Shown here piece after piece: positions 4,468-61,761 of a stretch of 64,000 nt of DNA. The notes under the pieces are model-generated. The model was given only the letters and a program-made list of their open reading frames with translations. It was not told the origin of the DNA and did not search any database. The stretch lies in assembly GCA_934467415.1 (NCBI GenBank), contig CAKSLQ010000003.1, positions 77,957-141,956 of the forward strand, read 5' to 3'. Numbering within the stretch: position 1 is the stretch's first letter; each line of letters opens with the position of its first letter. Position numbers and translations under genes: made by a program. Origin of the DNA: an uncultured Eubacteriales bacterium (GTDB lineage Bacteria > Bacillota > Clostridia > Oscillospirales > CAG-272).

Positions 4468-6870
4468 ATGAAGAGATTTACGAGAATCCTTGCAGGCGCA
4501 TGCGCGCTGCTGCTGGCGACCGGTTCGCTTACCGGCTGCTTCGGCAGCAAAAAGAAGCTGCCCGATAAGCAGACCGTTGACCATGTCTACAAGTACGAGC
4601 AGCGGGAGCTGTACAAGGTCGCACGCCCGGACGATGACAAGGACGTCACCGAGCGCGAGGACATCTACAACACGCTTTCCGATGTCAACGGCTATATGTT
4701 CCTCGTCTGCCGGTCGGATAAGGACTACAACGAGCTCGGCTACACGCTGCACTACGGCAAGTTTGACGGCGAGGACAAGTCGATAGAGCTGCCCGTGGCC
4801 GAGGATGCGGACAGCTATATCTCCTACGGCAGTTTTGCGCGCTTTGAGGATGGCTTTGCCCTGGTCGAGCAGCGCAACATCCTCATCGACAAGGAAAACT
4901 ATGTGTACGACCAGCAGTCCAATTTGCAGATCTACGACGAGAACGGCGTCTTGCAGTCGACCGTCGATCTGCGGAAGGCGTTCGGCATTCCGGACGACGG
5001 CTACATCAACGTCGAACGGGTGCTGCGGCATGACGATACGCTGTACCTGAGCTGTTACGGCGAAAGCGGAATGACCCTGCAGACGATGAGCCTCGACGGC
5101 ACGCTCGGCAAGACCGTCCCGGTCTTCCCGGACGGCACGGACGGCTACATGAACAACATGTTCTTCACGGCGGACGGCAAGATGATCGTCTGCGCGGACA
5201 TTTACGGCACGGACAGCTCAAAGCAGCTGATTATCACGCTCGACCTTGCCACCGGCGCGCGCACCGAGCTGGATACGAAAAACGACTACCGGCTGGGCAA
5301 TTCGCTGTTTGCGGGCCCCGACGGCACCTTCTACTGCTCGGATCAGAACGGTATCTACACCGTTGACCCGACGACGCTTGCAAAGACCGAGATCCTCAAC
5401 TACATCAACTCGGACTACATCTATAAATACAGCAATTTTACGATGCTGCCCGACGGCAGGATCGCCACCTTCAGAGGCAACTACAACCCGGGCGCCATGG
5501 CCTCGACCTACGCCGTCACCATCTTTACCAAGGTGCCGGACAGTGAGATTACGCCGAAGTACATCATCACGGTGGCGTCGGCGGGCTATGCCTACAATCT
5601 GCAGGAGCAGATCGTCAAGTACAACCTGGCCTCCGAGGAATACCGCATCAAGTATGTGGACTATTCGCAGTACAACACCGATGAGGACTACACGCTGGGG
5701 CAGACCCGCCTCGGCGACGACATCCTTGCGGGCAATGTGCCGGATGTGCTGATCGCCGACCAGCAGTTCTCGGTCTCGAAATACGTCAGCAAGGGGCTGT
5801 TTGCCGACCTCTACACCTTCATCGATAAGGATGAGAGCATGAAGCGCGAGGAATTCCTCGAAAATATCCTTGCCGGCTGTGAGATCGACGGCAAGCTCTA
5901 TGAGATCCCGACCAACTTCTATATTCAGGGGCTGATCGGTCCGAAGGAGACGATCGACACCTTCCGGGACCTCACCATCCGGGAGTTTGTTGACAAGCTC
6001 TCCACCCTGCCCGAGGGCGTGACCTTCTTCCGCGACGGCGACATCACCCGCGAGACCCTGCTGCAGATGCTGTTCCTCACCAACTATCAGAACTTCATCG
6101 ACCGCAAGACCGGCAAGTGCAGCATCAACAACGACGAGTGCCGCGCGCTGCTCGAATTTGCCAAGATGATGCCCGAAAAGAGTCTTTGGGACAGAGAAGG
6201 CTTCGATTCCTCCACGTTTGACTGGGACGCGTACAATAACATGTTCCGCGACGGCAAGGCGCTGGCGCAGGGGGTCTCCATCGGCGACTTCTCCGGCATC
6301 CGGGATTATGCCTACAGCTACGGGAAGGATACGGAGCTTGACTTCATCGGCTTCCCCGCGCCCGACCGTGCCGGCATGAGCTTCACCACGGCAAACCTCA
6401 AGTTCCTCGTCAGCGCAAAGGGCGCGTTCCCGGATGCGTCATGGGAATTCGTCAAGATTTTCCTTGCGGATGATTACCAGACCAACCAGTCCTGGGGCTT
6501 CCCGGTCAAGAAGGCCGCGCTCGACGCAAAGAAGCAGGCGATGCTCGACCAGATCAAGGAGAATGAGAAAAACCGGGACGAAGACGGCGACACGACGGGC
6601 GACGGCAACATCATCGGCGTGGCACGGGCGACGATGATCGACGATGTTTACTATGACGATGTTTACTATCGCCGCGAGGTGACCGCCGCGGATGTCGAGA
6701 CGGTCTACGGCTATGCCTGCACCGCCAAAAAGCAGTTTGTCTATGACACCAGCCTGTTCGACATCATCAACGAGGAGGCTTCCGCCTACTTCGCGGGGAC
6801 GAAAACACTCGACGAGATTCTCCCGCTGATGGAGAGCCGCATCACCATCTTCCTCTCCGAGGGAAGATAA
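4468..6870 (+). CDS. large lipoprotein: beta-propeller-like N-terminal half plus extracellular solute-binding (SBP family 1-like) C-terminal half
   Basis: Signal peptide with lipobox LTGC. C-terminal half has SBP-like sequence (PKYIITVASAGYAYNLQEQ..GNVPDVLIAD..GKLYEIPTNFY). Lies downstream of the ABC permeases. Confidence 0.7.
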   Translation: MKRFTRILAGACALLLATGSLTGCFGSKKKLPDKQTVDHVYKYEQRELYKVARPDDDKDVTEREDIYNTLSDVNGYMFLVCRSDKDYNELGYTLHYGKFDGEDKSIELPVAEDADSYISYGSFARFEDGFALVEQRNILIDKENYVYDQQSNLQIYDENGVLQSTVDLRKAFGIPDDGYINVERVLRHDDTLYLSCYGESGMTLQTMSLDGTLGKTVPVFPDGTDGYMNNMFFTADGKMIVCADIYGTDSSKQLIITLDLATGARTELDTKNDYRLGNSLFAGPDGTFYCSDQNGIYTVDPTTLAKTEILNYINSDYIYKYSNFTMLPDGRIATFRGNYNPGAMASTYAVTIFTKVPDSEITPKYIITVASAGYAYNLQEQIVKYNLASEEYRIKYVDYSQYNTDEDYTLGQTRLGDDILAGNVPDVLIADQQFSVSKYVSKGLFADLYTFIDKDESMKREEFLENILAGCEIDGKLYEIPTNFYIQGLIGPKETIDTFRDLTIREFVDKLSTLPEGVTFFRDGDITRETLLQMLFLTNYQNFIDRKTGKCSINNDECRALLEFAKMMPEKSLWDREGFDSSTFDWDAYNNMFRDGKALAQGVSIGDFSGIRDYAYSYGKDTELDFIGFPAPDRAGMSFTTANLKFLVSAKGAFPDASWEFVKIFLADDYQTNQSWGFPVKKAALDAKKQAMLDQIKENEKNRDEDGDTTGDGNIIGVARATMIDDVYYDDVYYRREVTAADVETVYGYACTAKKQFVYDTSLFDIINEEASAYFAGTKTLDEILPLMESRITIFLSEGR

Positions 6871-7083: not shown

Positions 7084-9534
7084 ATGAACAGACGTATACG
7101 GATGCTTGCAGGCGCGCTCGCGGCGGTGCTTGCCGCCGGCAGCCTTGCCGCCTGCGGCGAAAAGAAGCGGAAGCTGCCCGAAAAGCAGGTGCTTGACCAT
7201 GTCTACAAGTATGAGACGAAGACGCTTGCCACTTACGACGAGGTGAAGTGGGACGATGATGCCCAGAGAGATTTCAAGGGCTATACGGAGGTGCAGGACA
7301 CGGTGATCTCACCGGCGGGCTATGCCTACCGCACCGTCACCGTGGACAAGGATTACAACACCACGGCGCAGTCCGTCTCCTTCGGCCGATTTGACGGCAG
7401 CGATCCGGTGACGGTGGACAGCGTCCTGCCGACCGGCAACGGCGACTCGGTCTACTTTTCCGTCACGGCGGTCGTGCCGGAGGGGCTCGCCGCTGTCATG
7501 GACGAAAACCGCGTGGTCGGCGAGCAGAAGGTTGACGGCGAAACGGTTCCGATCTACGAGCGAAAAACCTATCTGCGCATCTTCGGCTTTGACGGCGAAA
7601 AGCTGTCCGAGACCGAGATCACCCCGGCGCTGTTCGGGCTGGCCGACCCGGGCGCAAACGGCTATTTCGGCGTGGGAAACCTCATCACCGACGGCAAGGA
7701 TCTGTACATGACCCTGCGCAGCGACAACACCGAGGCGACGGGCAAGCTCTTTCATCTCGGCGCGGACGGCAGCCCGAAGGAGCCGATCACTCTCGCGGAC
7801 GGCGGGGACTATTACTTCCAGTCGCTCTATTTCTTCGGCGAGGGCAAGCTGTTTGCGTCCTACTATGACCAGAGCGGCGGCGGCTCGGCGGCGTTTATCC
7901 TGGATATCGCGACCGGCAAGAAGACCAAGGTGGAAAGAGACAGCTTCCCCGGCGGCTATGCGGTGCTCTACAACTCCTTCGGCGGTCCGGACGGCATGTA
8001 TCTGTTTGACAGCACCGTCGGCGTGTACAAGCTGGATACCGACGCGATGACGCAGGAGATGGTCTGCAACTTCCTCAATTCGGATTTCATCTTCTCTTCG
8101 GGCAGCATGTCCTATTCCAATCTGCCGCTCGCGTCGCTCGGCGACGGCAGGTTTGCGGCACTGCGCAGCTCGACGAAAAAGGGAAAGACCTCGACACAGC
8201 TCAGCGTGCTGGAGCCTGCCGACCCCGCCGCGCTTCAGCCGAAGTACATCATCACGGTGGCGTCCGCGGGCTATGCGTACAATTTTGAGGAGCAGGTGGT
8301 CAATTTCAATCTCTCCTCGGACGAGTATCGTATCAAGTATGTCAATTACGGCACCTATAATACGACGGAGGATTACACGCTCGGCGTAAAGCAGCTCAAG
8401 GCGGACATCCTGGCCGGCAACGTGCCGGACATCCTGATCGCGGACGAGAGCTTCTCGGCGGCGGATTACATGAACAAGGGCGTCTTCGCCGATCTCTACA
8501 CCTATATCGACAAGGACGAGACCCTGACGCGGGACAAATTCCTGCCCAACATCCTTTCGGCGAGCGAGCTGAACGGTAAGCTCTATGAGCTGCCCACTTC
8601 CGTCTACATCTTCGGCATGATGGGCGAGAAGTCACGGGTCGCCGAATTCGGCGGGCTGACGATGCGTGAGTTTGCCGACAAGGTCGCGGCGCTCCCCGAC
8701 GGCGTGAAGTTCGTGCGCGATGGCGACAACACGCGCGACCAGATGCTGCGGATGCTGTTCTTCATCAACTATGCGGACTTTATCAACCGTGCCGACGCGA
8801 CCTGCGATTTCGACAACGACGATTTCCGTGCGCTGCTCGAATTTGTGAAGACCGTGCCCGAAAAGTTCATGCAGGACGACCCGAATTTCAATTCGGATAC
8901 CTTCGACTGGGACGCGTACAACAACATGTACAAGGAAGGCAAGGCGATCGCCCAGATCTCGGGTCTGACCGATTTCTTCGGCTTCGAGAACATGTCATAC
9001 ACCTTCGGCACGCTGGAGACCGACCTTGTCGGGCTGCCGTCGCGGGACAGAAACGGCTACGCCTTCAGCGCAACCCAGCTCAAATTCCTGCTCAGCGCCA
9101 AGAGCCCGTTTGCGGAGGAGGGCTGGAAGTTTATCCGGCAGTTCTTCACGGACGATGTGCAGACCTCGCTCGAATACGGCTTCCCGGTCACCGTGTCCGC
9201 GCTGAACGCGGCAAAGCAGGCGGCGCTCGACAAGATTGAGAAGCGCGCTGCCGAGCAGAAGGAAGGAACCGGCAAGGTCAACGGCTACATGGTCGGCGAC
9301 AACGGCGTGACCATCCCGATCTACGATCAGGGCACGCGGTATGAGACCGCCGCGGATGTGGAGCACATCTACGACATTGTGATGTCCGCAAAAAAGCCGC
9401 TCGGCTATGATGAAAGCATCTACAATGTCATCATGGAGGAGGCATCGGCGTATTTCTCCGGCGAGAAGAGCGTGGAGGAGGTCACCAAGCTGATTAACAA
9501 CCGGGTGGGGATCATCCTGACCGAAAACCGGTGA
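7084..9534 (+). CDS. large lipoprotein, paralogue of 4468-6870 (propeller-like N-half + SBP-like C-half)
   Basis: AAGGAG SD. Lipobox LAAC. Colinear with the upstream paralogue (KLPEKQVLDHVYKYE; PKYIITVASAGYAYNFEEQ; GNVPDILIAD; GKLYELPTSVY). Confidence 0.7.
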   Translation: MNRRIRMLAGALAAVLAAGSLAACGEKKRKLPEKQVLDHVYKYETKTLATYDEVKWDDDAQRDFKGYTEVQDTVISPAGYAYRTVTVDKDYNTTAQSVSFGRFDGSDPVTVDSVLPTGNGDSVYFSVTAVVPEGLAAVMDENRVVGEQKVDGETVPIYERKTYLRIFGFDGEKLSETEITPALFGLADPGANGYFGVGNLITDGKDLYMTLRSDNTEATGKLFHLGADGSPKEPITLADGGDYYFQSLYFFGEGKLFASYYDQSGGGSAAFILDIATGKKTKVERDSFPGGYAVLYNSFGGPDGMYLFDSTVGVYKLDTDAMTQEMVCNFLNSDFIFSSGSMSYSNLPLASLGDGRFAALRSSTKKGKTSTQLSVLEPADPAALQPKYIITVASAGYAYNFEEQVVNFNLSSDEYRIKYVNYGTYNTTEDYTLGVKQLKADILAGNVPDILIADESFSAADYMNKGVFADLYTYIDKDETLTRDKFLPNILSASELNGKLYELPTSVYIFGMMGEKSRVAEFGGLTMREFADKVAALPDGVKFVRDGDNTRDQMLRMLFFINYADFINRADATCDFDNDDFRALLEFVKTVPEKFMQDDPNFNSDTFDWDAYNNMYKEGKAIAQISGLTDFFGFENMSYTFGTLETDLVGLPSRDRNGYAFSATQLKFLLSAKSPFAEEGWKFIRQFFTDDVQTSLEYGFPVTVSALNAAKQAALDKIEKRAAEQKEGTGKVNGYMVGDNGVTIPIYDQGTRYETAADVEHIYDIVMSAKKPLGYDESIYNVIMEEASAYFSGEKSVEEVTKLINNRVGIILTENR

Positions 9535-9640: not shown

Positions 9641-9730
9641 CCATATTGGAGTTGTTTTTCGCGGATTCTGCATCCGCCTGCGCCGGTCAAGGCGGCGGGG
9701 GTAGGCGATGTTTGCGCAAAAGGAAACAAA

Positions 9731-9778
9731 GCCTTCCCCAGTGGGGGAAGGTGTCGGCGGAGCCGACGGATGAGGTGT
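9731..9778 (-). repeat. solo HP-I arm (3'-arm type)
   Basis: GCCTTCCCC-AGTG-GGGGAAGG-T-GTCGGC-GGA-GCCGAC-GGATGAGGTGT. Nearly identical to the arm at 28513-28560. Confidence 0.8.
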
Positions 9779-9843
9779 TTCTCCTGCGCCGGGCAGACGG
9801 CGGGGTGGGGATTTTTTGCGGAAAGAAACGGGGACGCACATTT

Positions 9844-9985
9844 CCGGTAGGGGTCGGCGCCCTCGACGACCCGCGCTCACCTTAGTGCAGGCGGGTGATT
9901 CGTGAATCGCCCCTACGGGATTGCAAAGGTTTTCGCGCACCGCACACCATTTTCACCGTAGGGCGGGGGCTTGCTCCCGCCGCAA
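9844..9985. repeat. mosaic of shared intergenic modules
   Basis: CCGGTAGGGGTCGGCGCCCTCGACGACCCGC (9844-9874) is the reverse complement of pieces at 55485-55499, 55587-55598 and 61565-61582. GTAGGGCGGGGGCTTGCTCCCGCCGCA (9958-9985) recurs at 55622-55648. Confidence 0.75.
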
Positions 9986-10007
9986 ATGTACGCGGACAAC
10001 TCTTTTT

Positions 10008-10118
10008 ACCTCCCTCGGTGAGGGAGGTGGCACGGCAACGCCGTGACGGAAGGAGTCTTGCTCTCTGCAAAACTCCCCCAGTCACCTATCGGTGACAGCC
10101 CCCTCAGCGAGGGGGCTG
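10008..10118 (-). repeat. HP-II five-hairpin element, copy 1 (inverted relative to the other two)
   Basis: Reverse complement aligns end to end with 50671-50778 and 61613-61718. Five consecutive stem-loops. Confidence 0.85.
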
Positions 10119-10156
10119 AAAATATAACAACCATAGAGCGCCGTCTGCGCCCCTCC

Positions 10157-21685: not shown

Positions 21686-21852
21686 AAGTATTCTGCGTAT
21701 CCTCCGTGTTGTCGGACGGTTACCCGTCGGTTTTGCCGGAAGATGCGGCGGCAGTCCGCCGTCGGAGCATCCGCCGAATGGGCAGGCGAGCCTGCCGCTC
21801 TCGATAACTCCGATCCTCGTTAACCGCGCGGTGCGCGGTCTGGCGCTAAAGG
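21686..21852 (-). ncRNA. glmS: glmS ribozyme (GlcN6P-activated)
   Basis: The minus strand reads ..UUU-AGCGCCAGACCGCG..GGUUAACGAGGAUCGGAGUUAUCGAGAGCGG..UUCGGCGGAUGCUCC.., matching the conserved glmS core and cleavage-site context. Lies directly 5' of glmS. Confidence 0.9.
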
Positions 21853-21934
21853 CGCGGCACATGTGCCGACGCCCTTTTCATGAGCGTATATTTTCTGCGG
21901 CTCCGCCGCGGAAAAACAAAATATGAAATCCCGT

Positions 21935-25813: not shown

Positions 25814-25984
25814 GCGCGCTCCTTTCCGCGGCAGTTCCGCAAAGGTATACTCATACTACATTATGATAGCATATCCGGCGGGAAAAAGAAAGCACTTTTC
25901 ACACTTTTGCTGTGTTTTTTATACCATAAATTTAAATGCATCCGCAAAAAAATGAAAAACACGCCGCAAAAATCGCAAAAGTTC

Positions 25985-26013
25985 TTGACAGACGCGGCGG
26001 GGCTTGCTATAAT
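25985..26013 (+). promoter_or_regulatory. consensus sigma-A promoter for rpmG-secE-nusG
   Basis: TTGACA, 17-nt spacer, TATAAT. Confidence 0.7.
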
Positions 26014-26161
26014 AATTTTACCTCTGTCAAGGAGGGCTTTTTCGTCGTGCTCTTGCACGCGCGCTTATTCCTTCGGCGCAAAAGCCCCCGTTTGGAGAGG
26101 GAGGTACGGCGGCTATGCCGCAGACGGGCGCATGCCCGAAAAACAAACAGGAGGTGCCGAT

Positions 26162-26311
26162 ATGAGAGTAAAAATTACCCTGGCGTGCAGCGAGTGCAAG
26201 CAGAGAAACTACGAGACCAAGAAGAACAAGAAAAACGATCCCGACAGACTTGAGATGAACAAGTACTGCCGTTTCTGCAACAAGCACACGCTCCACAGAG
26301 AGACGAAGTAA
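26162..26311 (+). CDS. rpmG: 50S ribosomal protein L33
   Basis: [56 protein letters not shown]. Confidence 0.95.
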
Positions 26312-26327
26312 TCGGGAGGACGACAAA

Positions 26328-28383: not shown

Positions 28384-28512
28384 TGCCGCAAGCCGACTTG
28401 CTTGATAATCATAAAGCGGCGCCGTCTTGCGGCAAGTCTGTACAAAATCTGCTGTGCCGTGGACGCAGCCATTGACAAAGTGTATATGTGAAGTGTAATG
28501 CTTGCGCTTATA

Positions 28513-28985
28513 GCCTTCTCCAGTGGGAGAAGGTGGCGGCGCAGCCGTCGGATGAGGTGTTTACGACAGCTGCAAGCTGTCGTAATCCAAGCACAGCTTG
28601 TCCAGTATATCTGCGGTTACAGAACCGAAGTTTTTGCGGATACTATCATTGGAATAACGAAGCACAGTAATCCCCCACAGGGCAAGCTTCTCATCTCTTT
28701 GTGCATCAGTTTGTACATGTGCATCGGACAGATGCTGTTTTCCGTCTACTTCAATCGCTATTTTTTTCTCTGCAATATAAAAGTCCAGAATATAGTTTTC
28801 AATATTGTGTTGACGCCTCACATTGCAGGGAAGTTTTTTCAGAAAGTCATACCAAAGATGCTTTTCTTCCGGTGTCATATTTTTACGAAGCGTTCGCGCG
28901 TTTTGGACAAGCTTTTTATTATATGGCAGCATGGCTACTCCTCATCCACCGCTGACGCGGTCCCCCTTCTCCCGCAGGAGAAGGC
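28513..28985 (-). mobile_element. candidate selfish element: DUF559 endonuclease ORF bracketed by double-hairpin inverted arms (HP-I, full-length form)
   Basis: Arms at 28513-28560 and 28938-28985. Each reads GCCTTCTCC-N4-GGAGAAGG, then a second hairpin, then GGATGAGG, in inverted orientation. The interior is visibly AT-rich compared with the flanks. The same arms occur without an ORF elsewhere in the window. Confidence 0.55.
28561..28932 (-). CDS. DUF559 domain endonuclease (Vsr-like PD-(D/E)XK fold)
   Basis: ..NYILDFYIAEKKIAIEVDGKQH..RDEKLALWGITVLRYSN.. is the typical DUF559 core. SD GAGGAG lies 5 nt before the ATG. Confidence 0.8.
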   Translation of the reverse strand: MLPYNKKLVQNARTLRKNMTPEEKHLWYDFLKKLPCNVRRQHNIENYILDFYIAEKKIAIEVDGKQHLSDAHVQTDAQRDEKLALWGITVLRYSNDSIRKNFGSVTADILDKLCLDYDSLQLS

Positions 28986-29018
28986 TTTTTTAGTTGTTCG
29001 GCAAAGCTTGTTCGCCCC

Positions 29019-30023: not shown

Positions 30024-30201
30024 GGTACGCCTCCGAAACAGTTACTGCGTTTATTTTAGCATATCGGGGCGCAGAAGTCAAACCCCGCGGCAGATTTCGG
30101 CTGATTTCTATGGGAAATGTCTATTGATTTTGCGCGCGGTTTCCTGTATAATCTTCCCTGTAGGCGCGGCGCGATGCCGCGGCGATGAAAGGAAACAGGA
30201 T

Positions 30202-34550: not shown

Positions 34551-34652
34551 CCGTACAGCGGGATGCGGAATACGCACCGCAGGGCAAAGCCCTTTCGTCC
34601 GCTCCGCAACTCCCCGTCGGGGCGGCACTGTACGCGCGCATTCCTACTCTGT
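34551..34652 (-). promoter_or_regulatory. THF (tetrahydrofolate) riboswitch aptamer
   Basis: The minus strand reads ACAGAGUAGGAAUGCGCGCGU..GGGGAGUUGCGGAGCGGACGAAAG..CUGCGGUGCGUAUUCCGCAUCCCGCUGU. This matches the conserved AGAGUAG / GCGU / CGCGGUG / GCAUCCGCU elements of the THF-I class. Located 5' of folT. Confidence 0.8.
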
Positions 34653-34716
34653 AATTTAATCAGTTGAAAAATTCTGTTCTTCAACTGCCGACTCTATTAT
34701 AGTCGCTTTCTGCGGC

Positions 34717-36683: not shown

Positions 36684-36812
36684 GGCTCCCCTGTGCAAGG
36701 GGGTGAGTTGTACGAGACACAAAAGCGTCTCGCGGAGTTTTTCTTCGTCGGCTAAACACCGACGATTTCGCGAGCGAAACCGAAAAACATCCTGACGCAG
36801 TTGACTGAGGGG
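36684..36812 (-). repeat. intergenic module mosaic (GGCTCCCCTGTGCAAGGGG module, ~60-nt shared module, half HP-II)
   Basis: The reverse complement of ~36735-36798 matches 55499-55557 almost base for base. GGCTCCCCTGTGCAAGGGG recurs at 50608 and, inverted, at 11091. Confidence 0.75.
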
Positions 36813-44446: not shown

Positions 44447-44639
44447 AAGGCCGGGGAGAATGTCGGTCGTTTGGCGAGCGTTGGCACGGCACGATGCCGC
44501 GCTTCTTAGGCTTCCCCGGCGGGGAAGGCTTTAGCGGCGGGAGACAGATGTTGCCCTACAGATTTGAGCGTTTTCCGTACATTCCGACGCGCGCATTTCG
44601 CCCTCGGTTCTGAACCCGCACGGGTTCTTTTTTCTTTGC

Positions 44640-48024: not shown

Positions 48025-48260
48025 TGTCAATACCTCCGTGTTTATCGCCCGATGGGCGTTTGTTGCATATGCGGGCAGCCTCGGGCTGCTCTACGCTTAT
48101 ATTAGCACAGGCTAACTGAAAATACAAGCCTCAATTTCGAAAAAATTCGCGCGCGTTCACCCGCTTTTTTATGCAAAAGAGCGAAAAAGGCGTTTCTGCG
48201 CCGAAAAAAGTCATTCCGACAGAAGATGAAAAACTGTCGGAATTTTCTTTGCAAATCCCA

Positions 48261-48289
48261 TTGACAAACGCCATCGGATGTGCTATTAT
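48261..48289 (+). promoter_or_regulatory. sigma-A type promoter for the MarR gene
   Basis: TTGACA, 17-nt spacer, TATTAT. Confidence 0.55.
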
Positions 48290-48336
48290 AGTTGCGCTTA
48301 GAATTGTTCTGTTTAGAACTGTTTTGAAAAGGAGGT

Positions 48337-48855
48337 ATGACGGTGGAGAAAGAAAGCAAGCCGCGTTTCAAACCGTATGAGGTGTTCACAAAGCTGATGA
48401 GCCTCGGCAAGTCGATGCGCACGCATTGTCACCGCGCCATCGAGGCGGACGGCTTTACGCTCAACGAGACCGATGTACTGCTGGCGCTGACGGCCTCGCC
48501 CGAGAACAACACGGTGGGCGCGATCAGCGAAGCCTCCAATATTTCCAAGGGGAATATCAGCCAGGCGGTGGAATCCTTAAAGCAGAAGGGGTATCTCGTC
48601 ACCGAGCAGAGCAGCGACGACCGACGGTATTTCGCGGTGCGGCTGACGGCGGCGGCGGACCCCGTGATCGAAAAGCTGAAGGCGGCGGAGGACGAGTATT
48701 TCGCCGGATTCATGGGCGCGCTGCCGAGCAGCGAGGAGGCATCGCTTGTCACCCGCATCTTCGACGCCGCGCAGAAATTTTCACCGACCGCGTTTTTGGG
48801 CAAGCTCTCCGGTAAGGGCAAAAAAACCGATAAAGATGCCGCAGACAAGGACTGA
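48337..48855 (+). CDS. MarR family transcriptional regulator
   Basis: Winged-helix region ..NTVGAISEASNISKGNISQAVESLKQKGYL..DDRRY.. The start may be GTG 48343, which is better spaced from GGAGG. Confidence 0.8.
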   Translation: MTVEKESKPRFKPYEVFTKLMSLGKSMRTHCHRAIEADGFTLNETDVLLALTASPENNTVGAISEASNISKGNISQAVESLKQKGYLVTEQSSDDRRYFAVRLTAAADPVIEKLKAAEDEYFAGFMGALPSSEEASLVTRIFDAAQKFSPTAFLGKLSGKGKKTDKDAADKD

Positions 48856-50592: not shown

Positions 50593-50670
50593 GTTGATGT
50601 GTTTTTCGGCTCCCCTGTGCAAGGGAGGCAAAGAGAGATTGCGCACGGTGCGAGAAATCGGTTCATCTTT

Positions 50671-50778
50671 CAGCCCCCTCGGTGAGGGGGCTGTCACCGA
50701 TAGGTGACTGGGGGAGTTTTGCAGAGAGCAAGACTCCTTCCGTCGCCGTTCGGCGACACCTCCCTCACCGAGGGAGGT
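50671..50778 (+). repeat. HP-II five-hairpin element, copy 2
   Basis: CAGCCCCCT..AGGGGGCTG, TCACC-GATA-GGTGA, GGAGTTTTGC..GCAAGACTCC, GTCGCC-GTTC-GGCGAC, CCTCCCT..AGGGAGG. Confidence 0.85.
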
Positions 50779-50861
50779 AAAAAGAGTAGTTCGTGCAAAG
50801 ATTGCGGCGGGAGAGAGCCACCCCTCCATGCGGTTAAAGTCTTTTCTGTCTTCCTGAATCC

Positions 50862-54492: not shown

Positions 54493-54710
54493 CTGTGTTA
54501 CACCTCCTTATGGACTGATGGCCATGCACGAACACATGGCAAGGGGGTAGGGTCAACTTCGGTCAACCTATACCGAATCAATATTCTACCATGCAAAAAA
54601 GGCTTTGTCAAGAAAAATCATCAATATTTTTTACGGAACGTGCCGAAAAAACTGCGCACACGGGCGGATTTTGTGCTAAAATAAAGGCAGTTATGGTTTC
54701 GGAGGCAGTT

Positions 54711-55361
54711 ATGACGGTCATGTATTTGGTGCGCCACGGGCAGAGCGAGGGCAATGTACGCGGCGGATTTGCGGGGCGCGTGGACTACGCGCTCTCCGAA
54801 AAAGGCGCGCGGCAGGCGCGCCTCACGGCGGATTTTCTCGGCGGCGTGCATCTCGACGCCGTCTGCGCAAGCCCGCTGCGCCGCGCGCAGGAGACAGCCG
54901 CACCGATCGCGGCCGATCACGGGCTTGTGACAGAGACGCGCGCGGGGCTTGTCGAGTTCGATTTCGGCGACTGGGAGGGGCTCGCGCCCGACGTGCTGAA
55001 TGCCCGCTTCCCGGACGCCGTGCCGACCTGGAAGTATCACCTGCCCGACGTCGCCTGCCCGCACGGCGAGCGCATGGCGGACTGCTTTGCGCGGGCCGGG
55101 GCGGAATTTGCCGCGCTTGCGCGGGACTATGCCGGGCGCGACGTCTGCGTCGTGACGCACGGCGCGTTTCTCAAGTGCCTTTTCTGCGTGCTGCACGGTC
55201 TGCCGCTTCGTGAGATCGACCGCGTGCCGTGGGCGGACAACGCCTCGGTGACCAAGGTCGTCATCGGTGCGGACGGCGTCCCCGCGATCGAATACGAGAA
55301 TTACAGCGCCCATATGGGCGACCTCGTCACCGGCGTCTCCCGCACCCTCACCGAGAAGTAG
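54711..55361 (+). CDS. histidine phosphatase family protein (phosphoglycerate mutase-like)
   Basis: LVRHGQSEGN catalytic motif. ATG 54711 lies 6 nt after GGAGG. Confidence 0.8.
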   Translation: MTVMYLVRHGQSEGNVRGGFAGRVDYALSEKGARQARLTADFLGGVHLDAVCASPLRRAQETAAPIAADHGLVTETRAGLVEFDFGDWEGLAPDVLNARFPDAVPTWKYHLPDVACPHGERMADCFARAGAEFAALARDYAGRDVCVVTHGAFLKCLFCVLHGLPLREIDRVPWADNASVTKVVIGADGVPAIEYENYSAHMGDLVTGVSRTLTEK

Positions 55362-55365
55362 GGGC

Positions 55366-55781
55366 GGGAACGCGCAAACCGCACGGGGGCTTACTCCCGC
55401 CGTCCGAACCCAATCTGACTTTGGCTCCTCCTGACGGGGGAGCTGTCGCCGTAGGCGACTGAGGGAGAGATAACGCAAAGCAAGGCGGGTCGTCGAGGGA
55501 TGTTTTTCGGTTTCGCTTTGCGAAATCGTCGGTGTTCAGCCGACGAAGAAAAACTCCTTAGGAACACATCGTGTTCCGGGGGTCATGACCCCTACCGGAT
55601 TGTACAAAAGACGCACACACTGTAGGGCGGGGGCTTGCTCCCGCCGCACCTGCTCATACAAAACAATCATTCCCCGGTTGTTATTTTACTTTGCAAAAGA
55701 CACCTCATCCGTCGCCGTTCGGCGACACCTTCCCCCGCTGGGGAAGGCAAAGAACGCGGGTGACCGTACCGTTCTAACCAA
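55366..55781. repeat. dense mosaic of intergenic hairpin modules
   Basis: Contains a half HP-II (55423-55468), the ~60-nt shared module (55499-55557), GTAGGGCGGGGGCTTGCTCCCGCCGCA (55622-55648) and a solo HP-I 3' arm (55700-55748). Confidence 0.8.
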
Positions 55782-55944
55782 GCCTTCCCCCTTGGGGGAA
55801 GGTGGCGTGTAATACGCCGGATGAGGGGTAGCCATTCGTCAGAATGGCGTCTCACAGCACAGAACGAGACTGCGCAGACGGATGCTTACGCATCCTACCC
55901 CTCATCAGTCAACTCCGTTGACAGCTTCCCCCAAGGGGGAAGCC
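55782..55944. repeat. HP-I miniature (gene-less, symmetric arms)
   Basis: A and B hairpins, then GGATGAGGGGTA, then three small hairpins, then TACCCCTCATC followed by B' and A' hairpins. Confidence 0.85.
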
Positions 55945-56117
55945 AAAAGACGCTTTGCGTCTCGTACGGCTCTCCCCACCGGGGAAGCCTAAGGGCGAAG
56001 AGCGCTTTCTTCTCCGCTTCCCGCAAACAACCCGCCGGAAACGGCGTATTTTTTGTATTTACTTGCCGGGCGGCGGATGCTATGATTGAAATAGGAAAAA
56101 ACGCGGAGGAAACCGAC

Positions 56118-58598
56118 ATGAAACTGGTTGCAAAACTTCTGTGCGCGGCGGCGCTCACGCTTTTGCTGTGCTTTGCGGCTTCGGCCAAAGAGGTCGTCAT
56201 CTACGAGAACAGCTTCGACGGCGCGTCCGCCCTCTCCGACTTTACCGTGCGCGGCAACTGGTCGGTGAAAAACGGCGCCGCAAATCTCGCGGCGGGCAAA
56301 TCCTCGTCGGGCTGCCTGACCTACAAAATGCCGCAAAAATACCGCGGCAAAAAGTACAAACTTGAGGTGGACTACCTCGGGCAGAGCGGCATGGGCGGCC
56401 TGCTGATCGGCGCGGACGGCGCGGGTCTCTCGTCGACGCCGTCCTACTTCTTCGGCTATACCGCATCGGTCGCGGCAAGCGGCACGAAGGGCATGTTTGC
56501 CTATTTCAACGAAGAAGGCGGCTGGGGCGACACGCTGCGCACCGGGCTTGACACCTTTGACGAGAAGGACGTCCGCCTCACGGCCGTGGTCGATCCCGCA
56601 AAGCGCGAGATCCTGTTCACGATCAAGCCGCAGGGCGGCTCGCGCGAGCTGTTTGCCATGACCTACTGCCTGCAGACGACCGAAAACGAGATGATCTACA
56701 CGTCGTTTTCGGACACGGTCGGCCTGCGCCGCGCTTACACGGCAAAGGGCAGCTTCGACAATTTCCGCGTCAGCGTCTACGAGGACGATGTCATGCCCGC
56801 GATGGGCGGCAGCGTCACGCTGTCGGGGCTTGCGTTTGCCGCCTCGGCGGACGCGGCCGTGACCGACGGCACGCTCACGGCTGGGACGGTCCTCTCGGCC
56901 GCAGACTTCGGCAGTGCCGCCGACTTTGCGGCGGACATCCGCTGCGAGCGCCGTATGCTCTTTTATTTCGGTATGCGCGATGCGAAAAACGGCTTTGCCG
57001 CCGAAATAAACCGCGCCGAGGAGACCGTGGTGCTGTATGCCGTCCGGGACGGCGCGTTTGTCTGGCTCGGCGAGCGGCATGTGCCGGTCACGGACGATTT
57101 CTGCCGCCTGCGCGCCCGTGTGCGCGATGAAGTTGTCTCGGTCTGGTACGACTGCTACGGGGAGAGCGACGACCTCTATCCGCTGATTGAGCTTGCGCAG
57201 GATGGCGCGGCCGCCGGGCGGTTCGGCGTCCTCTGCGAGGGCGGCGAAGCGAAGAACTTCACCGTGACCGGTGCGGGTGAGGCATATGCGGGCAAAACCT
57301 TTGTCAACCCGGTCTGCTACGGCGCAGACCCGGATGTGCTTTACCACGACGGCGTGTATTACCTCTACATCCGCAAGGTCGTCGGCGACGATCCGTTCAC
57401 GGTGTACACCTCGACCGATATGGTCAACTGGACGGAGCGGGGCGGGGTCTACAAGTGGCAGAAGGGCTGGAGCAGCAAGTACCACTTCATGAGTCCGAAC
57501 GTCTTTTACTGCGACGGTATGTTCTATCTGCTGTTCCAGGCGTGGAACAACGACACCGACAAGAGCGCGCGGCTGTTCTATGCCAGCGCAAAGTCGCCGC
57601 TCGGACCGTTTGAGGGCTGCACGATGCTGCACGATGTCCACGAGATCGGCGGACATCCGTTTGTGGACGACGACGGCAAGGTCTATATCACGCTCTGCCG
57701 CTTTGACTTCGGCTCAAACCTGTATATCGAGGAGGTCACGGTGAAGGACGGCGTCATCACGCCGAAGCCCGAGACCTGCAAGCTGATCCTCTATCCGCAG
57801 ACTGCCTATGAGGTCAACGGCCGCGGCCGCACGGTGGAGGGCGGCGTGCCGTGGAAGCACGGCGGCTATTATTACATGTTTTATGCCGTTGGCAGCTACA
57901 AGCTGCATTACGGGCAGAGCTATGCGGTGTCGAAGAACATCTACGGCCCGTACGAGAAGTACGAGTACAATCCGTTCCTCGTCTACAATGCGGCGGTGGA
58001 CGGCCCGGGCGACGCGGTCATCCTGCCCTCGCCGGACGGAGAGGAGCTGTATCTCGTCTACCATCAGCACAATGCGATCGGCACGGTCTCGCCGCGCATG
58101 ACCTGCATTGACCGGCTGAAATTTGTCCCGAATCCGGACGGCGGCCCCGATGTGCCGGTGACGGCGGGGCCGTCCTCCACGCCGCAGCCCGTGCCGTCCG
58201 GCGCGGCGGAGACCCCTGCGGCGGCCGAAACCAAAGTGACGCTGACGCTCGGCAGCCGGGCGGCGACGCGGAATGATACCGCCGTGACGCTGGATGCCGC
58301 GCCGCTCTCCCGCGGCGGGCGCATGATGCTGCCCATCCGCTTTGTGGCCGAGGCGTTCGGCGCGGCGGTCGGCTGGGACGGCGACACCGCCACGGCGACC
58401 GTGGCGGCCGGGGACACGGTTATCACCGTGCGGATCGGCGAAAAGCAGATCTTTGTGAACGGCAATGCCGTGCCGCTCGACACCGCCGCCTTCATCGAGG
58501 GCGGGCGCACCTATCTGCCGGTGCGCGCCGTTGCCGACGCGCTCGGCGCGGCGGTCGGCTGGGACGGCGACACCGCCACGGCGACTCTGACGAAGTGA
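56118..58598 (+). CDS. secreted GH43-like glycoside hydrolase with an N-terminal lectin-like domain and two C-terminal copper-amine-oxidase-N-like (stalk) repeats
   Basis: ATG 56118 after GGAGGA. Signal peptide. GH43-like NPVCYGADPDVLYHDGVYYLY. Duplicated ..AVGWDGDTATAT.. C-terminal repeats. Confidence 0.75.
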   Translation: MKLVAKLLCAAALTLLLCFAASAKEVVIYENSFDGASALSDFTVRGNWSVKNGAANLAAGKSSSGCLTYKMPQKYRGKKYKLEVDYLGQSGMGGLLIGADGAGLSSTPSYFFGYTASVAASGTKGMFAYFNEEGGWGDTLRTGLDTFDEKDVRLTAVVDPAKREILFTIKPQGGSRELFAMTYCLQTTENEMIYTSFSDTVGLRRAYTAKGSFDNFRVSVYEDDVMPAMGGSVTLSGLAFAASADAAVTDGTLTAGTVLSAADFGSAADFAADIRCERRMLFYFGMRDAKNGFAAEINRAEETVVLYAVRDGAFVWLGERHVPVTDDFCRLRARVRDEVVSVWYDCYGESDDLYPLIELAQDGAAAGRFGVLCEGGEAKNFTVTGAGEAYAGKTFVNPVCYGADPDVLYHDGVYYLYIRKVVGDDPFTVYTSTDMVNWTERGGVYKWQKGWSSKYHFMSPNVFYCDGMFYLLFQAWNNDTDKSARLFYASAKSPLGPFEGCTMLHDVHEIGGHPFVDDDGKVYITLCRFDFGSNLYIEEVTVKDGVITPKPETCKLILYPQTAYEVNGRGRTVEGGVPWKHGGYYYMFYAVGSYKLHYGQSYAVSKNIYGPYEKYEYNPFLVYNAAVDGPGDAVILPSPDGEELYLVYHQHNAIGTVSPRMTCIDRLKFVPNPDGGPDVPVTAGPSSTPQPVPSGAAETPAAAETKVTLTLGSRAATRNDTAVTLDAAPLSRGGRMMLPIRFVAEAFGAAVGWDGDTATATVAAGDTVITVRIGEKQIFVNGNAVPLDTAAFIEGGRTYLPVRAVADALGAAVGWDGDTATATLTK

Positions 58599-61380: not shown

Positions 61381-61420
61381 AGGTAATAAGGTAGGAAATG
61401 CAGGGCGGCGCGTTCTCCAA

Positions 61421-61559
61421 GCCTTCCCCTTGGGGGAAGGGGGACCGCACCCGCGGTGGATGAGGGATTGCAGGCAGCAGGCACAGCATTGTGTGATGCT
61501 TTGCTTGCATCAATCCCTCATCAGTCGCCTACGGCGACAGCTTCCCCAATGGGGAAGCC
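61421..61559 (+). repeat. HP-I miniature (gene-less, with 5'-arm and 3'-arm polarity like the DUF559 copy)
   Basis: Left arm ..GGGGAAGG-GGG-ACCGC-ACCC-GCGGT-GGATGAGGGATT. Right arm AATCCCTCATC-A-GTCGCC-TAC-GGCGAC-A-GCTTCCCC-AAT-GGGGAAGC. Confidence 0.85.
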
Positions 61560-61612
61560 TAAGAGGCGCCGACCCCTACCGGGTTTGTGGAGAATCTGCA
61601 CAATCTGTCTTT

Positions 61613-61718
61613 CAGCTCCCTCGGTGAGGGAGCTGTCGCCGAAGGCGACTGAGGGAGTTTTGCTCTGAGCGAAACTCCTTCCACCGCTGGCGCGGTCCCC
61701 CTCCCTCAATGAGGGAGG
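61613..61718 (+). repeat. HP-II five-hairpin element, copy 3
   Basis: Colinear with 50671-50778. Stems differ by paired substitutions. Confidence 0.85.
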
Positions 61719-61761
61719 TATAATTACTGTCCATCCCATCGAATTAAATTTCAAAAAACAC

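Follow-up and report, generated by a model that had tools for sequence, protein, structure and literature searches.

Strain-variable hairpin repeats dominate a phosphatase-GH43 spacer in an uncultured gut Oscillospiraceae bacterium and, in one family, share their arms with a DUF559 nuclease cassette

We analysed a 756-nt spacer at positions 55362-56117 of a 64-kb window (the window being the whole stretch of DNA under study) from an uncultured gut Oscillospiraceae bacterium, whose nearest named relative is an uncultured Oscillospiraceae metagenome-assembled genome (MAG). The spacer separates a histidine phosphatase gene (54711-55361, + strand; 216 aa; Pfam His_Phos_1, 1.5e-53) from a gene whose product matches the Pfam domains GH43 and Cu_amine_oxidN1 (56118-58598, + strand; 826 aa, ATG at 56118). 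It is dominated by modules of several hairpin repeat families, which are multi-copy, stand at unrelated loci, vary between strains and are absent in two outgroup lineages. The arms of one of these families, HP-I, also form the ends of a cassette that encodes a DUF559 protein.

A preliminary description of the region had called it gene-free, and this holds: the small open reading frames (ORFs) of the spacer, of 75, 62, 99 and 101 aa, have no Pfam match. The same description had listed spurious ORFs there, including a 99-codon false extension of the GH43 gene. ORF 55821-58598 indeed places 99 codons before the GH43 ATG, and these fall in an HP-I miniature and in strain-variable DNA; the extension is spurious, because the orthologues are 826-828 aa long, which fits a start at 56118, and the added codons are without Pfam match. 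The N-terminus of the GH43 protein, MKLVAKLLCAAALTLLLCFAASA, resembles a signal peptide by inspection. On the other side of the spacer, the 256-codon ORF from 54591 is an over-extended phosphatase frame, of which close homologues cover 84%; the true length is taken as 216 aa because all close homologues have 215-216 aa. An exact-protein look-up of the phosphatase and GH43 proteins of the window matched no record.

The hairpins and repeats claimed for the spacer were all found in their places, to within 1-3 nt. The first 18 nt after the phosphatase stop codon (55362-55379, + strand) are the sole left-side part common to other contigs of the same species, of which L001-L003 (locus labels of this form denote public contigs) read GGGCGGGAACGCGCAAAC and then diverge. 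They are followed by hairpin G1, CGGGGGCTTACTCCCGCCG (55384-55402, +), a degenerate copy of the GGCGGGGGCTTGCTCCCGCC REP-like hairpin (REP, repetitive extragenic palindrome) that lacks the GTAG head and is 95% identical to 55628-55646 and 9964-9982. Next comes half of an HP-II element, its left arm (55423-55468, +; fold z = -3.5), with a terminal hairpin GGCTCCTCC-TGAC-GGGGGAGC, a second hairpin GTCGCC-GTA-GGCGAC and the purine box TGAGGGAG; positions 55438-55467 are 97% identical to 61628-61657.

A REP-like hairpin of the GGGTCG type then appears in two pieces. In the + strand reading its left half (55485-55499, - strand) is 15/15 identical to the reverse complement of 9860-9874, and its right half, GACCCCTACCGG (55587-55599, - strand), which bears the CCCTAC (GTAGGG) head, is 13/13 identical to the reverse complement of 9843-9855. 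The intact hairpin at 9843-9876 reads TCCGGTAGGGGTCGGCGCCCTCGACGACCCGCGC, also given as CCGGTAGGGGTCGGCGCCCTCGACGACCC, and a half copy similar to 55587-55599 is present at 61565-61582. In place of the 4-nt loop of the split hairpin stands a nested insertion of 87 nt (55500-55586, +). The inserted segment carries a three-stem module of 60 nt (55498-55557; fold z = -5.8), 95% identical to the reverse complement of 36734-36792, and a GGAACAC/GTGTTCC hairpin (55561-55577). The latter shares 88% identity with a stretch of the double-hairpin module that the L007 miniature carries nested in its arm.

Downstream of the split hairpin lies G2, a GTAGGG-headed REP-like hairpin, GTAGGGCGGGGGCTTGCTCCCGCCGCA (55622-55648, +), which is 97% identical to 9954-9984. 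A solo HP-I arm follows at 55700-55748 (- strand; z = -4.4); it matches the arm pattern, is 90% identical to the reverse complement of 9731-9778, and consists of the box CCTCATCC, the second hairpin GTCGCC-GTTC-GGCGAC and the terminal hairpin CCTTCCCCC-GCT-GGGGAAGG. A complete HP-I miniature of 169 nt and without ORF occupies 55778-55946 (+), with a left arm at 55781-55831, a 63-nt core and a right arm at 55895-55944; its DNA fold of -58.3 kcal/mol corresponds to z = -11. The AGACGC-TTT-GCGTCT hairpin at 55948-55962 (+; z = -3.1) recurs as (GAG)ACGC..GCGTCTCGTAC directly 5' of A-type hairpins in L007, in L004 and, as the reverse complement, at 36700-36740 of the window. The repeat-derived part of the spacer closes with an A-type hairpin, GGCTCTCCCC-ACC-GGGGAAGCC, and the junction CCTAAGGGCG (55968-55997, +), 95% identical to 44505-44525 and 90% identical to 61543-61563. 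The intervening stretches 55649-55699 and 55749-55777 had no match to anything.

The predicted fold of the whole spacer reached -352.8 kcal/mol, as against -271 +/- 6.7 for dinucleotide shuffles (z = -12.2). Taken singly, G1 (z = -0.8), G2 and the A-type hairpin fold no better than shuffles (z about -1), and they are taken as real because they are repeated, not by their folding energy. Recognisable modules amount to 473 of the 756 nt (63%), or 74% of the part 5' of a native 3' block. The preliminary description had the spacer composed almost entirely of hairpin modules, which is too strong given this count: the modules dominate, and the last ~120 nt are a native terminator, promoter and ribosome-binding site (RBS). 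Over the 64-kb window as a whole, 16.4% of intergenic bases fall in short dispersed repeats, as against 1.3% of coding bases. The half HP-II and the solo HP-I arm contain a 33-nt inverted repeat (55419-55451 and 55720-55752). Because the two arms are 76% complementary over these 33 nt and pair over a long range in the predicted minimum-free-energy fold, they may be the two ends of one composite element of 334 nt, into whose interior the REP-like hairpins and the nested module have moved.

The native block at 55998-56117 (+) is conserved non-repeat sequence in which a promoter and terminator scan found a terminator-like hairpin, CGCCGGAAACGGCG, with a T-run (56033-56056), a promoter for the GH43 gene (-35 TTTACT at 56058-56063, a 17-nt spacing and a TG-extended -10 TATGAT at 56081-56086) and the RBS GGAGGA of that gene at 56105-56110. 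Throughout the clade, relatives match the block at ~80% identity, and the outgroup L014-16 retains its core. In an intrinsic-terminator test the hairpin at 56033-56056 was the only one to qualify, and no repeat module has a T-run after it. Since the modules lie between the phosphatase stop codon and this terminator-like hairpin, they probably belong to the 3' untranslated region (UTR) of the phosphatase gene. Searching the spacer with Rfam 15 gave no match at gathering score and nothing relevant at E-value thresholds; the best sub-threshold scores were mir-3718 at 20.9 bits (cut-off 78) and whalefall-1 at 16.9 bits (cut-off 37).

The same families recur elsewhere in the window. REP-like hairpins with GTAGGG/CCCTAC directly at the stem comprise G2 (GTAGGGCGGGGGCTTGCTCCCGCC), the GGGTCG hairpin and a third hairpin at 9893-9920; in a REP palindrome test, G2 (55622-55648), 9843-9876 and 9893-9920 each showed a stem of 8-9 bp with one mismatch. 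The head was located at the stem at 9847, 9893 (-), 9958, 55622, 55587-55599 (-) and 61565-61582 (-), and the REP-like copies in the window number ~6, all of them intergenic. They alternate in orientation, 9847 (+), 9893 (-), 9958 (+) and 55587 (-), 55622 (+), and are mixed with HP-I and HP-II arms and small modules, as in bacterial interspersed mosaic elements (BIMEs). Beyond the window, GTAGGG-headed hairpin units stand in unrelated flanks at eight places in other gut MAG loci, with the G2-type head and hairpin in L107, L071, L095, L109 (twice), L085 and L068.

An HP-I arm is made up of three parts: the terminal hairpin CCTTC[T/C]CC-N3-4-GG[A/G]GAAGG, another hairpin that varies, and a box, which reads GGATGAGG in left arms and CCTCATCC in right arms. 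With a simple form of this pattern, eight arms are found in the window, at 9729, 28512, 28940, 55703, 55780, 55900, 61419 and 61516. The 169-nt HP-I miniature is ORF-less and has pairing terminal arms of ~45-50 nt, as looked for in a MITE (a miniature transposable element with inverted repeats). HP-II, present at 10002-10121, 50666-50782 and 61608-61723 besides the half copy 55423-55468, has an HP-I-like layout; one HP-II arm type carries the HP-I second hairpin (ACCGC..GCGGTCCCCC), and on account of this shared hairpin and layout we regard HP-I and HP-II as homologous. An exact-pattern scan for the HP-II arm gave at least 120 matches in metagenome contigs, and HP-II is abundant in gut metagenomes. 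Gene-bearing HP-II copies were not found: of 82 arms from 80 metagenome loci, none was followed by a credible ORF.

Two further clusters of the window are sister mosaics of the spacer. The one at 9729-10121 joins a solo HP-I arm (9729-9775), three alternating GTAGGG-headed hairpins (9847+, 9893-, 9958+) and the complete HP-II 10002-10121; the one at 61417-61723 joins a second HP-I miniature (61417-61562), the half REP-like hairpin 61565-61582 and HP-II 61608-61723. Over 77 nt, the complete HP-II at 50666-50782 agrees at 99% identity with the reverse complement of 10045-10121, and the second copy of the 60-nt module (36734-36792, - strand) lies inside a further element with hairpin arms. Among the elements of the spacer itself, four kinds at least can be told apart, namely REP-like hairpins, HP-I, the HP-II arm and small nested modules.

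We collected alleles of the spacer through homologues of the phosphatase gene and compared them across strains, the preliminary description having held that conservation without module-level indels would speak against mobility. The spacer is not conserved: it ranges from 132 to 1415 nt, and whole modules differ between strains. In the outgroup L014-16, whose phosphatase is 84% identical to that of the window, the spacer has 132 nt and holds terminator, promoter and RBS only; in the outgroup L250-257 (78%) it has 158 nt, with a simple hairpin and T-runs, promoter and RBS and no HP-I, HP-II or REP module. Six contigs with a 91% identical phosphatase (L005, L008, L009, L011, L012 and L013) have a spacer of 235-236 nt with one G2-type and one A-type hairpin. 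At the same 91% identity, L007 has 442 nt, consisting of the content of the 235-236-nt alleles plus an HP-I miniature, and L004, L006 and L010 have 1415 nt with two extra genes and a different HP-I miniature. The window, the reference of this comparison, carries the full mosaic in 756 nt. The 235-236-, 442- and 1415-nt alleles are all on contigs that encode an identical phosphatase protein (P0003). In L004 (6652-8066; also in L006 and L010), from a sister species, the extra genes encode a 115-aa HTH_3/Xre-type regulator (-) and a 157-aa protein without Pfam hit (+), after which come a CCCCTTGCACAGGGGAG hairpin and the second kind of HP-I miniature.

The alleles all meet at the A-type hairpin plus CCTAAGAGGCG; in those of 236 nt this hairpin reads AGCCTTCTCCCCCAAGGGAAGCCTAAGAGGCG and is the sole HP-like element. 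The core of the L007 miniature is 95% identical to the core of 55778-55946 and represents an orthologous copy with different arm sub-hairpins; L007 matches the right half of the window spacer, 55775-56117, module by module. The miniature core of L004, L006 and L010 belongs to the same subfamily as window 61417-61562, so that miniatures with unrelated cores occupy the same site, directly 5' of the A-type hairpin, in different strains. A paralogous copy of the 55778 miniature (82-84%) stands at another locus in L001, and in that contig an HP-I miniature lies 3' of the BNR-repeat gene where the window has HP-II 50666-50782. L007 and L012 differ by a clean 205 nt, with breakpoints in the homologous hairpin sequence AGCCT|TC(C/T)CCCC; because the breakpoints lie in shared hairpin sequence, the difference can be read as an insertion into a hairpin or as a deletion between two hairpins. 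Contigs of the window species, with 99% identical phosphatases, part from the window 18 nt past the stop codon, enter the left flank of a copy of the 60-nt-module element and end there. Public short-read contigs of the same or related species (L001-L003, L117-L121) end 49-64 nt past the phosphatase stop or ~50 nt past the stop of an Rce1-like gene; because they end at or just before hairpin repeats, these elements break metagenome assemblies.

These comparisons bear out the proposal that the spacer is built of dispersed hairpin families that are gained and lost, as outgroup spacers are module-free and strains differ by whole modules. The module-rich state is, judged from the outgroup spacers of 132 and 158 nt that hold no modules, the derived one. 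We consider it likely that the spacer is a recently expanded and dispensable mosaic and marks a hotspot at which REP/MITE-like elements insert into one another and recombine by way of their arms. As an object it is of an ordinary kind, a hotspot of small palindromic repeats; the association of HP-I arms with a nuclease gene is the part worth following up.

That association is seen in the window at 28512-28987 (- strand), where a gene for a 123-aa Vsr-like endonuclease of the DUF559 family (28561-28932; PF04480, 5e-27) lies between HP-I arms. The gene has 41% GC in a window of 61% GC. On the gene strand the 5' arm reads AAGCCTTCTCC-TGCG-GGAGAAGG GGGACCGCGTCAGCGGTG GATGAGGAGTAGCC ATG, and the 3' side reads TAA ACACCTCATCC GACGGCTGCGCCGCC ACCTTCTCC-CACT-GGAGAAGGCT. 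The left arm terminates in GGATGAGGAGTAGCC-ATG, and the complement ACACCTCATCC opens the right arm right after the stop codon. Because the left arm ends directly at the ATG, its box GGATGAGGAG doubles as a Shine-Dalgarno sequence; and with the complement of GGATGAGGAG, CACCTCATCC, placed after the stop codon, base pairing between the two ends of the mRNA could mask the RBS.

More than 4800 homologues of the window DUF559 protein were found at E < 1e-10, most of them 124 aa long and many on contigs of <2 kb. A scan with one genome per species confirmed 310 DUF559 loci, from which 80 (L037-L116) were kept for arm statistics. HP-I-type arms flank the gene in ~70 of these 80 species-representative loci from related gut Clostridia. 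The 5' consensus, (A)AGCCTTCTCC-TGYG-GGAGAAGG-[hairpin]-GGATGAGGAG-N4-6-ATG, and the 3' consensus, stop-CACCTCATCC-[hairpin]-CACCTTCTCC-CRCT-GGAGAAGGCT, together describe ~70/80 loci. The cassettes stand in many contexts, with 41 distinct upstream flanks among 65 and one flank common to 21 species, and a 73%-identical DUF559 gene at a different locus of another species has the same arms. The gene is always AT-richer than its surroundings (median 36.5% GC vs 46% for loci L037-L116).

Among 46 ungapped DUF559 genes the ratio of nonsynonymous to synonymous substitution (dN/dS) is about 0.075 and synonymous sites are saturated (proportion of synonymous differences, pS, 0.72), while the stems of the terminal hairpins are 99-100% identical. 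Hairpin 1 is paired at 99.8%, its sole variation being a T:A to C:G swap that is always two-sided. Hairpin 2 varies freely and stays 96-98% paired, with 3-5 pair types per position (pairing 89% observed vs 61% shuffled). The loops of the 5' and 3' terminal hairpins remain distinct, TGYG vs CRCT, and the stems of these hairpins hold their identity across genomes of 37-61% GC. This pattern points firmly to HP-I arms constrained far beyond neutral expectation and tied to one nuclease gene.

Other modules are also found nested within the arms. A double-hairpin module of ~50 nt sits in hairpin 2 of the 5' DUF559 arm in L026 and is absent from L017, at the same locus and with an identical DUF559 protein; the same module is nested in the arm of the L007 miniature. 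In L087, L094, L097, L105, L112 and L113, 5'-arm hairpin 2 contains a different module with a long A-run/T-run stem (e.g. GAGGATCCCAAAAACG...GTTTTTGGGTTCTC), so that here, too, a hairpin loop has received an insertion. Upstream of DUF559 in L089, L108 and L111 the left arm is found duplicated in tandem, two or three times, and downstream of the gene L096 has tandem units that each open with the box ACACCTCATCC. In 21 species (e.g. L038 2431-2991) the cassette abuts one upstream gene in which a GxxGSGKT P-loop motif was read by eye; because the ORF enters the arm ~12 codons before its stop, the 5' arm would supply the C-terminal tail of that protein. A defence-system reading of the cassette was rejected, PADLOC giving weak nuclease-domain matches only, and so was the derivation of the miniatures from the cassette by internal deletion, as their cores score no better than shuffles against the DUF559 ORF.

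Searched by sequence against the PDB, the DUF559 protein matched 3hrl (2.6e-13) and the I-Bth0305I homing endonuclease domain 3r3p (E = 0.007). Its AlphaFold model (predicted local distance difference test, pLDDT, 80; residues 1-13 of low confidence) gave 3r3p_A as the best fold match (TM score 0.77 normalised to the target), followed by 3hrl and Vsr (1cw0). D50, E61, D63, H67, D76 and D80 are invariant in the DUF559 alignment, and by analogy these acidic and histidine residues would form the active site. A score of 60 bits against the 218-bit cut-off sets this DUF559 clade apart from the NCBIfam PRK09767 equivalog. To our knowledge, the very large DUF559 family has yet to be assigned a function. 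A survey of PD-(D/E)XK nucleases groups DUF559, Vsr and I-Bth0305I together (PMC3424549).

Several known systems resemble parts of what we describe. What marks a REP is an extragenic palindrome headed by GTAG or GT(A/G)G (PMC2817692, PMC3733652), and the REP-like hairpins of the window, like REPs and BIMEs (PMC2817692, PMC3733652, PMC8266576), are short, G+C-rich, imperfect extragenic palindromes with a GTAG(GG) head at the stem. As in BIMEs, they stand in clusters, turned in alternating directions and interspersed with other motifs, and the palindromes are kept by complementary changes. Unlike single REPs, the HP arms are double hairpins of ~45-50 nt. The cassette recalls a REPtron, in which a REP-associated tyrosine transposase (RAYT) lies between inverted REPs, in that the DUF559 gene lies between two inverted structured repeats; the bracketed gene here encodes a PD-(D/E)XK Vsr-like nuclease, however, and the 1.59 Mb searched contained no Y1/HUH RAYT. 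With bacterial MITEs and modular repeats (Correia/NEMIS, RUP, ERIC, BOX) the miniatures share the lack of an ORF, a length of ~120-170 nt, long inverted ends, strong folding and intergenic placement, and with MITEs also strain presence/absence and a longer gene-bearing relative that has only the ends in common. They differ from MITEs in the lack of a target-site duplication, in that the product of this relative is a Vsr-like nuclease and no recognised transposase, in that the HP ends are themselves hairpins, and in that insertions are found in the loops of other hairpins.

The cassette also resembles free-standing EDxHD/Vsr-like homing genes (I-Bth0305I, 3r3p; PMC3239194), being small, AT-rich, strongly conserved and present in many contexts, with a matching catalytic domain. 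Unlike homing endonuclease genes it is without a NUMOD or helix-turn-helix (HTH) region and lies in no intron or intein, and conserved structured repeats, which occur in many ORF-less copies as well, stand on both sides of it, a feature of no known homing gene. Within DUF559/YcjD (PF04480, PRK09767, 3hrl), the 123-aa protein ranks as a full-length member. In the literature on DUF559, REP/RAYT, I-Bth0305I, Clostridia MITEs and repeat-flanked nucleases (most subscription journals lying outside its scope), we found neither the cassette nor the repeat families described, nor any account of conserved repeats beside DUF559 genes. Four features go beyond the preliminary description: the GTAG(GG) heads, the identity of the HP-I arms with the ends of the DUF559 cassette, the native character of the last ~120 nt, and the fact that recombination can explain gain and loss equally well as transposition.

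How such a mosaic could arise may be sketched as follows. Structured elements would insert preferentially into the loops of hairpins, and near-identical terminal hairpins could then serve as portable homology for ectopic recombination or gene conversion. Recombination between hairpins would add, swap and delete modules and would leave behind solo A-type hairpins and solo arms. The DUF559 nuclease might act in trans as a reader of HP-I arms, in the manner of a RAYT flanked by its REPs, and would by this action mobilise HP-I; for the REP-like hairpins, one would expect a RAYT to be needed. Tentatively, and as a possibility that we hold to be open to considerable doubt, DUF559 and its double-hairpin arms could form an undescribed selfish or domesticated element of gut Clostridia, a nuclease-based counterpart of RAYT-REPIN systems (REPIN, REP doublet forming hairpin). 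On this view the protein would recognise the terminal hairpins, in hairpin or cruciform state, and would drive copying, exchange and deletion of the ORF-less HP-I elements and possibly of HP-II, with which spacers such as 55362-56117 are filled.

A number of observations weigh against the mosaic and nuclease readings. No transposition event was seen in the material, and every gain or loss is explicable by deletion or gene conversion between short homologies. No direct repeat of the kind left by target-site duplication stands beside the miniatures or ~70 cassettes, whose flanks are A-rich 5' and variable 3'. A tblastn search with E. coli RayT over the window and all collected loci (1.59 Mb) returned nothing below E = 0.25, and enrichment of GTAGGG next to hairpins over control hexamers was not demonstrable within 64 kb. 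The left half of the spacer, 55380-55775, is reproduced by no second assembly. As for the nuclease, PF04480 spans residues 7-113 of 123 and leaves no separate NUMOD/HTH DNA-binding region, and we know of no transposase or homing activity of DUF559. What miniatures and cassette share is the arms, plus the 8-nt GTAGCCAT beside the box in one miniature, so the link between them rests on the arms; and the window miniatures have the hairpin-1 variant CCTTCCCC where the resident cassette has CCTTCTCC. That the DUF559 gene was copied recently within a genome was considered and rejected, as copies in one MAG are 81-93% identical, the same as between genomes. No empty cassette site was found through the Rce1-like/rplA locus, where one strain of the same species has the cassette and distant lineages differ in synteny or have contigs that end ~50 nt past the gene. 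This clade was likewise not found in mobile-element collections: IMG/VR yielded no cassette, and the identity of homologues in PLSDB and in GenBank phages does not exceed 43%.

The modules might instead turn over passively, with no dedicated enzyme, by slippage, quasi-palindrome template switching and ectopic homologous recombination, and the DUF559 gene would merely lie inside one palindrome. Breakpoints in microhomology, the old age of the within-genome DUF559 copies and the fact that no target-site duplication, transposase or RAYT was found all fit such a process, and template switching can yield apparent compensatory changes in DNA palindromes. It accounts poorly for stems that are 99-100% identical despite saturated synonymous sites in genomes of 37-61% GC, for an association of arms and DUF559 in ~70/80 loci and many contexts, and for 5' and 3' loops that keep TGYG and CRCT apart. 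Because stem identity, arm/gene association and distinct loops argue for a sequence-specific partner, we judge purely passive turnover unlikely. Alternatively, the host could have selected the hairpins for their structure: as a long 3' UTR or an insulator they would keep the phosphatase mRNA stable, stop read-through into the GH43 gene or serve as binding sites for nucleoid proteins, functions with reported precedents in E. coli REP/BIME elements. The position of the modules between the phosphatase stop codon and the conserved terminator-like hairpin and the extreme structure of the spacer (z = -12.2) would suit this role, and REPs are described as acting in mRNA stabilisation and termination (PMC3733652). 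Yet the modules are missing from two related lineages with the same gene pair, differ among contigs with an identical phosphatase protein and adjoin unrelated genes elsewhere, and a T-run is found only at hairpin 56033-56056; we hold a host-selected function to be quite improbable, and we think it more likely that the elements ride along as selfish or neutral passengers than that the two flanking genes need them for regulation.

It also had to be considered that the assembly, of a metagenome or from short reads, is at fault in part of the spacer, above all in 55380-55775, where short repeats could have led to a chimeric join. Same-species short-read contigs stop or diverge 18-64 nt past the phosphatase stop, related contigs break at HP-type repeats elsewhere, and the left half occurs in no independent contig. 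Against this stand the module-by-module reproduction of the right half in L007 and the split REP, whose two halves keep the order and orientation expected of a true nested insertion. The L001-type allele, moreover, looks like a module-rich allele of the same kind, because it runs into the left flank of a copy of the 60-nt-module element. A chimeric origin seems to us very improbable, though less firmly so for 55380-55775 than for the right half, and the reading of the spacer as a mosaic of REP/MITE-like elements remains the one we prefer.

The arm association offers a concrete and testable idea of the role of one DUF559 clade. Should the hairpins prove to be substrates of the nuclease, families of palindromic repeats would have a second class of enzyme tied to them besides the Y1 RAYTs, and such systems would extend to gut Firmicutes, a group that, like the Clostridia, the REP surveys PMC2817692 and PMC3733652 do not mention. 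On the practical side, the repeats end short-read contigs and create false ORFs and false N-terminal extensions, and a spacer that ranges from 132 to 1415 nt between close relatives matters for MAG annotation, strain typing and the inference of 3' UTRs and promoters in Oscillospiraceae.

Other features of the window were recorded in passing. Its only Rfam matches at gathering score were a THF riboswitch (34554-34653, - strand; 94 bits) and a glmS ribozyme (21689-21858, - strand; 63.9 bits). The other long gaps between high-GC3 ORFs, at 48031-48745 (715 nt) and 25814-26327 (514 nt), contain none of the dispersed repeats. Two adjacent paralogues of ~800 aa (4468-6870 and 7084-9534, + strand) share blocks that are 69-84% identical at a constant offset of ~2685 nt. 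A 33-nt inverted repeat (88%), TGCTAAAATAAAGGCAGTTATGGTTTCGGAGGC, occurs at 30029-30061 and 54674-54706, just 5' of the start of the Rce1-like gene and of the true phosphatase start, and may be a shared promoter or leader motif.

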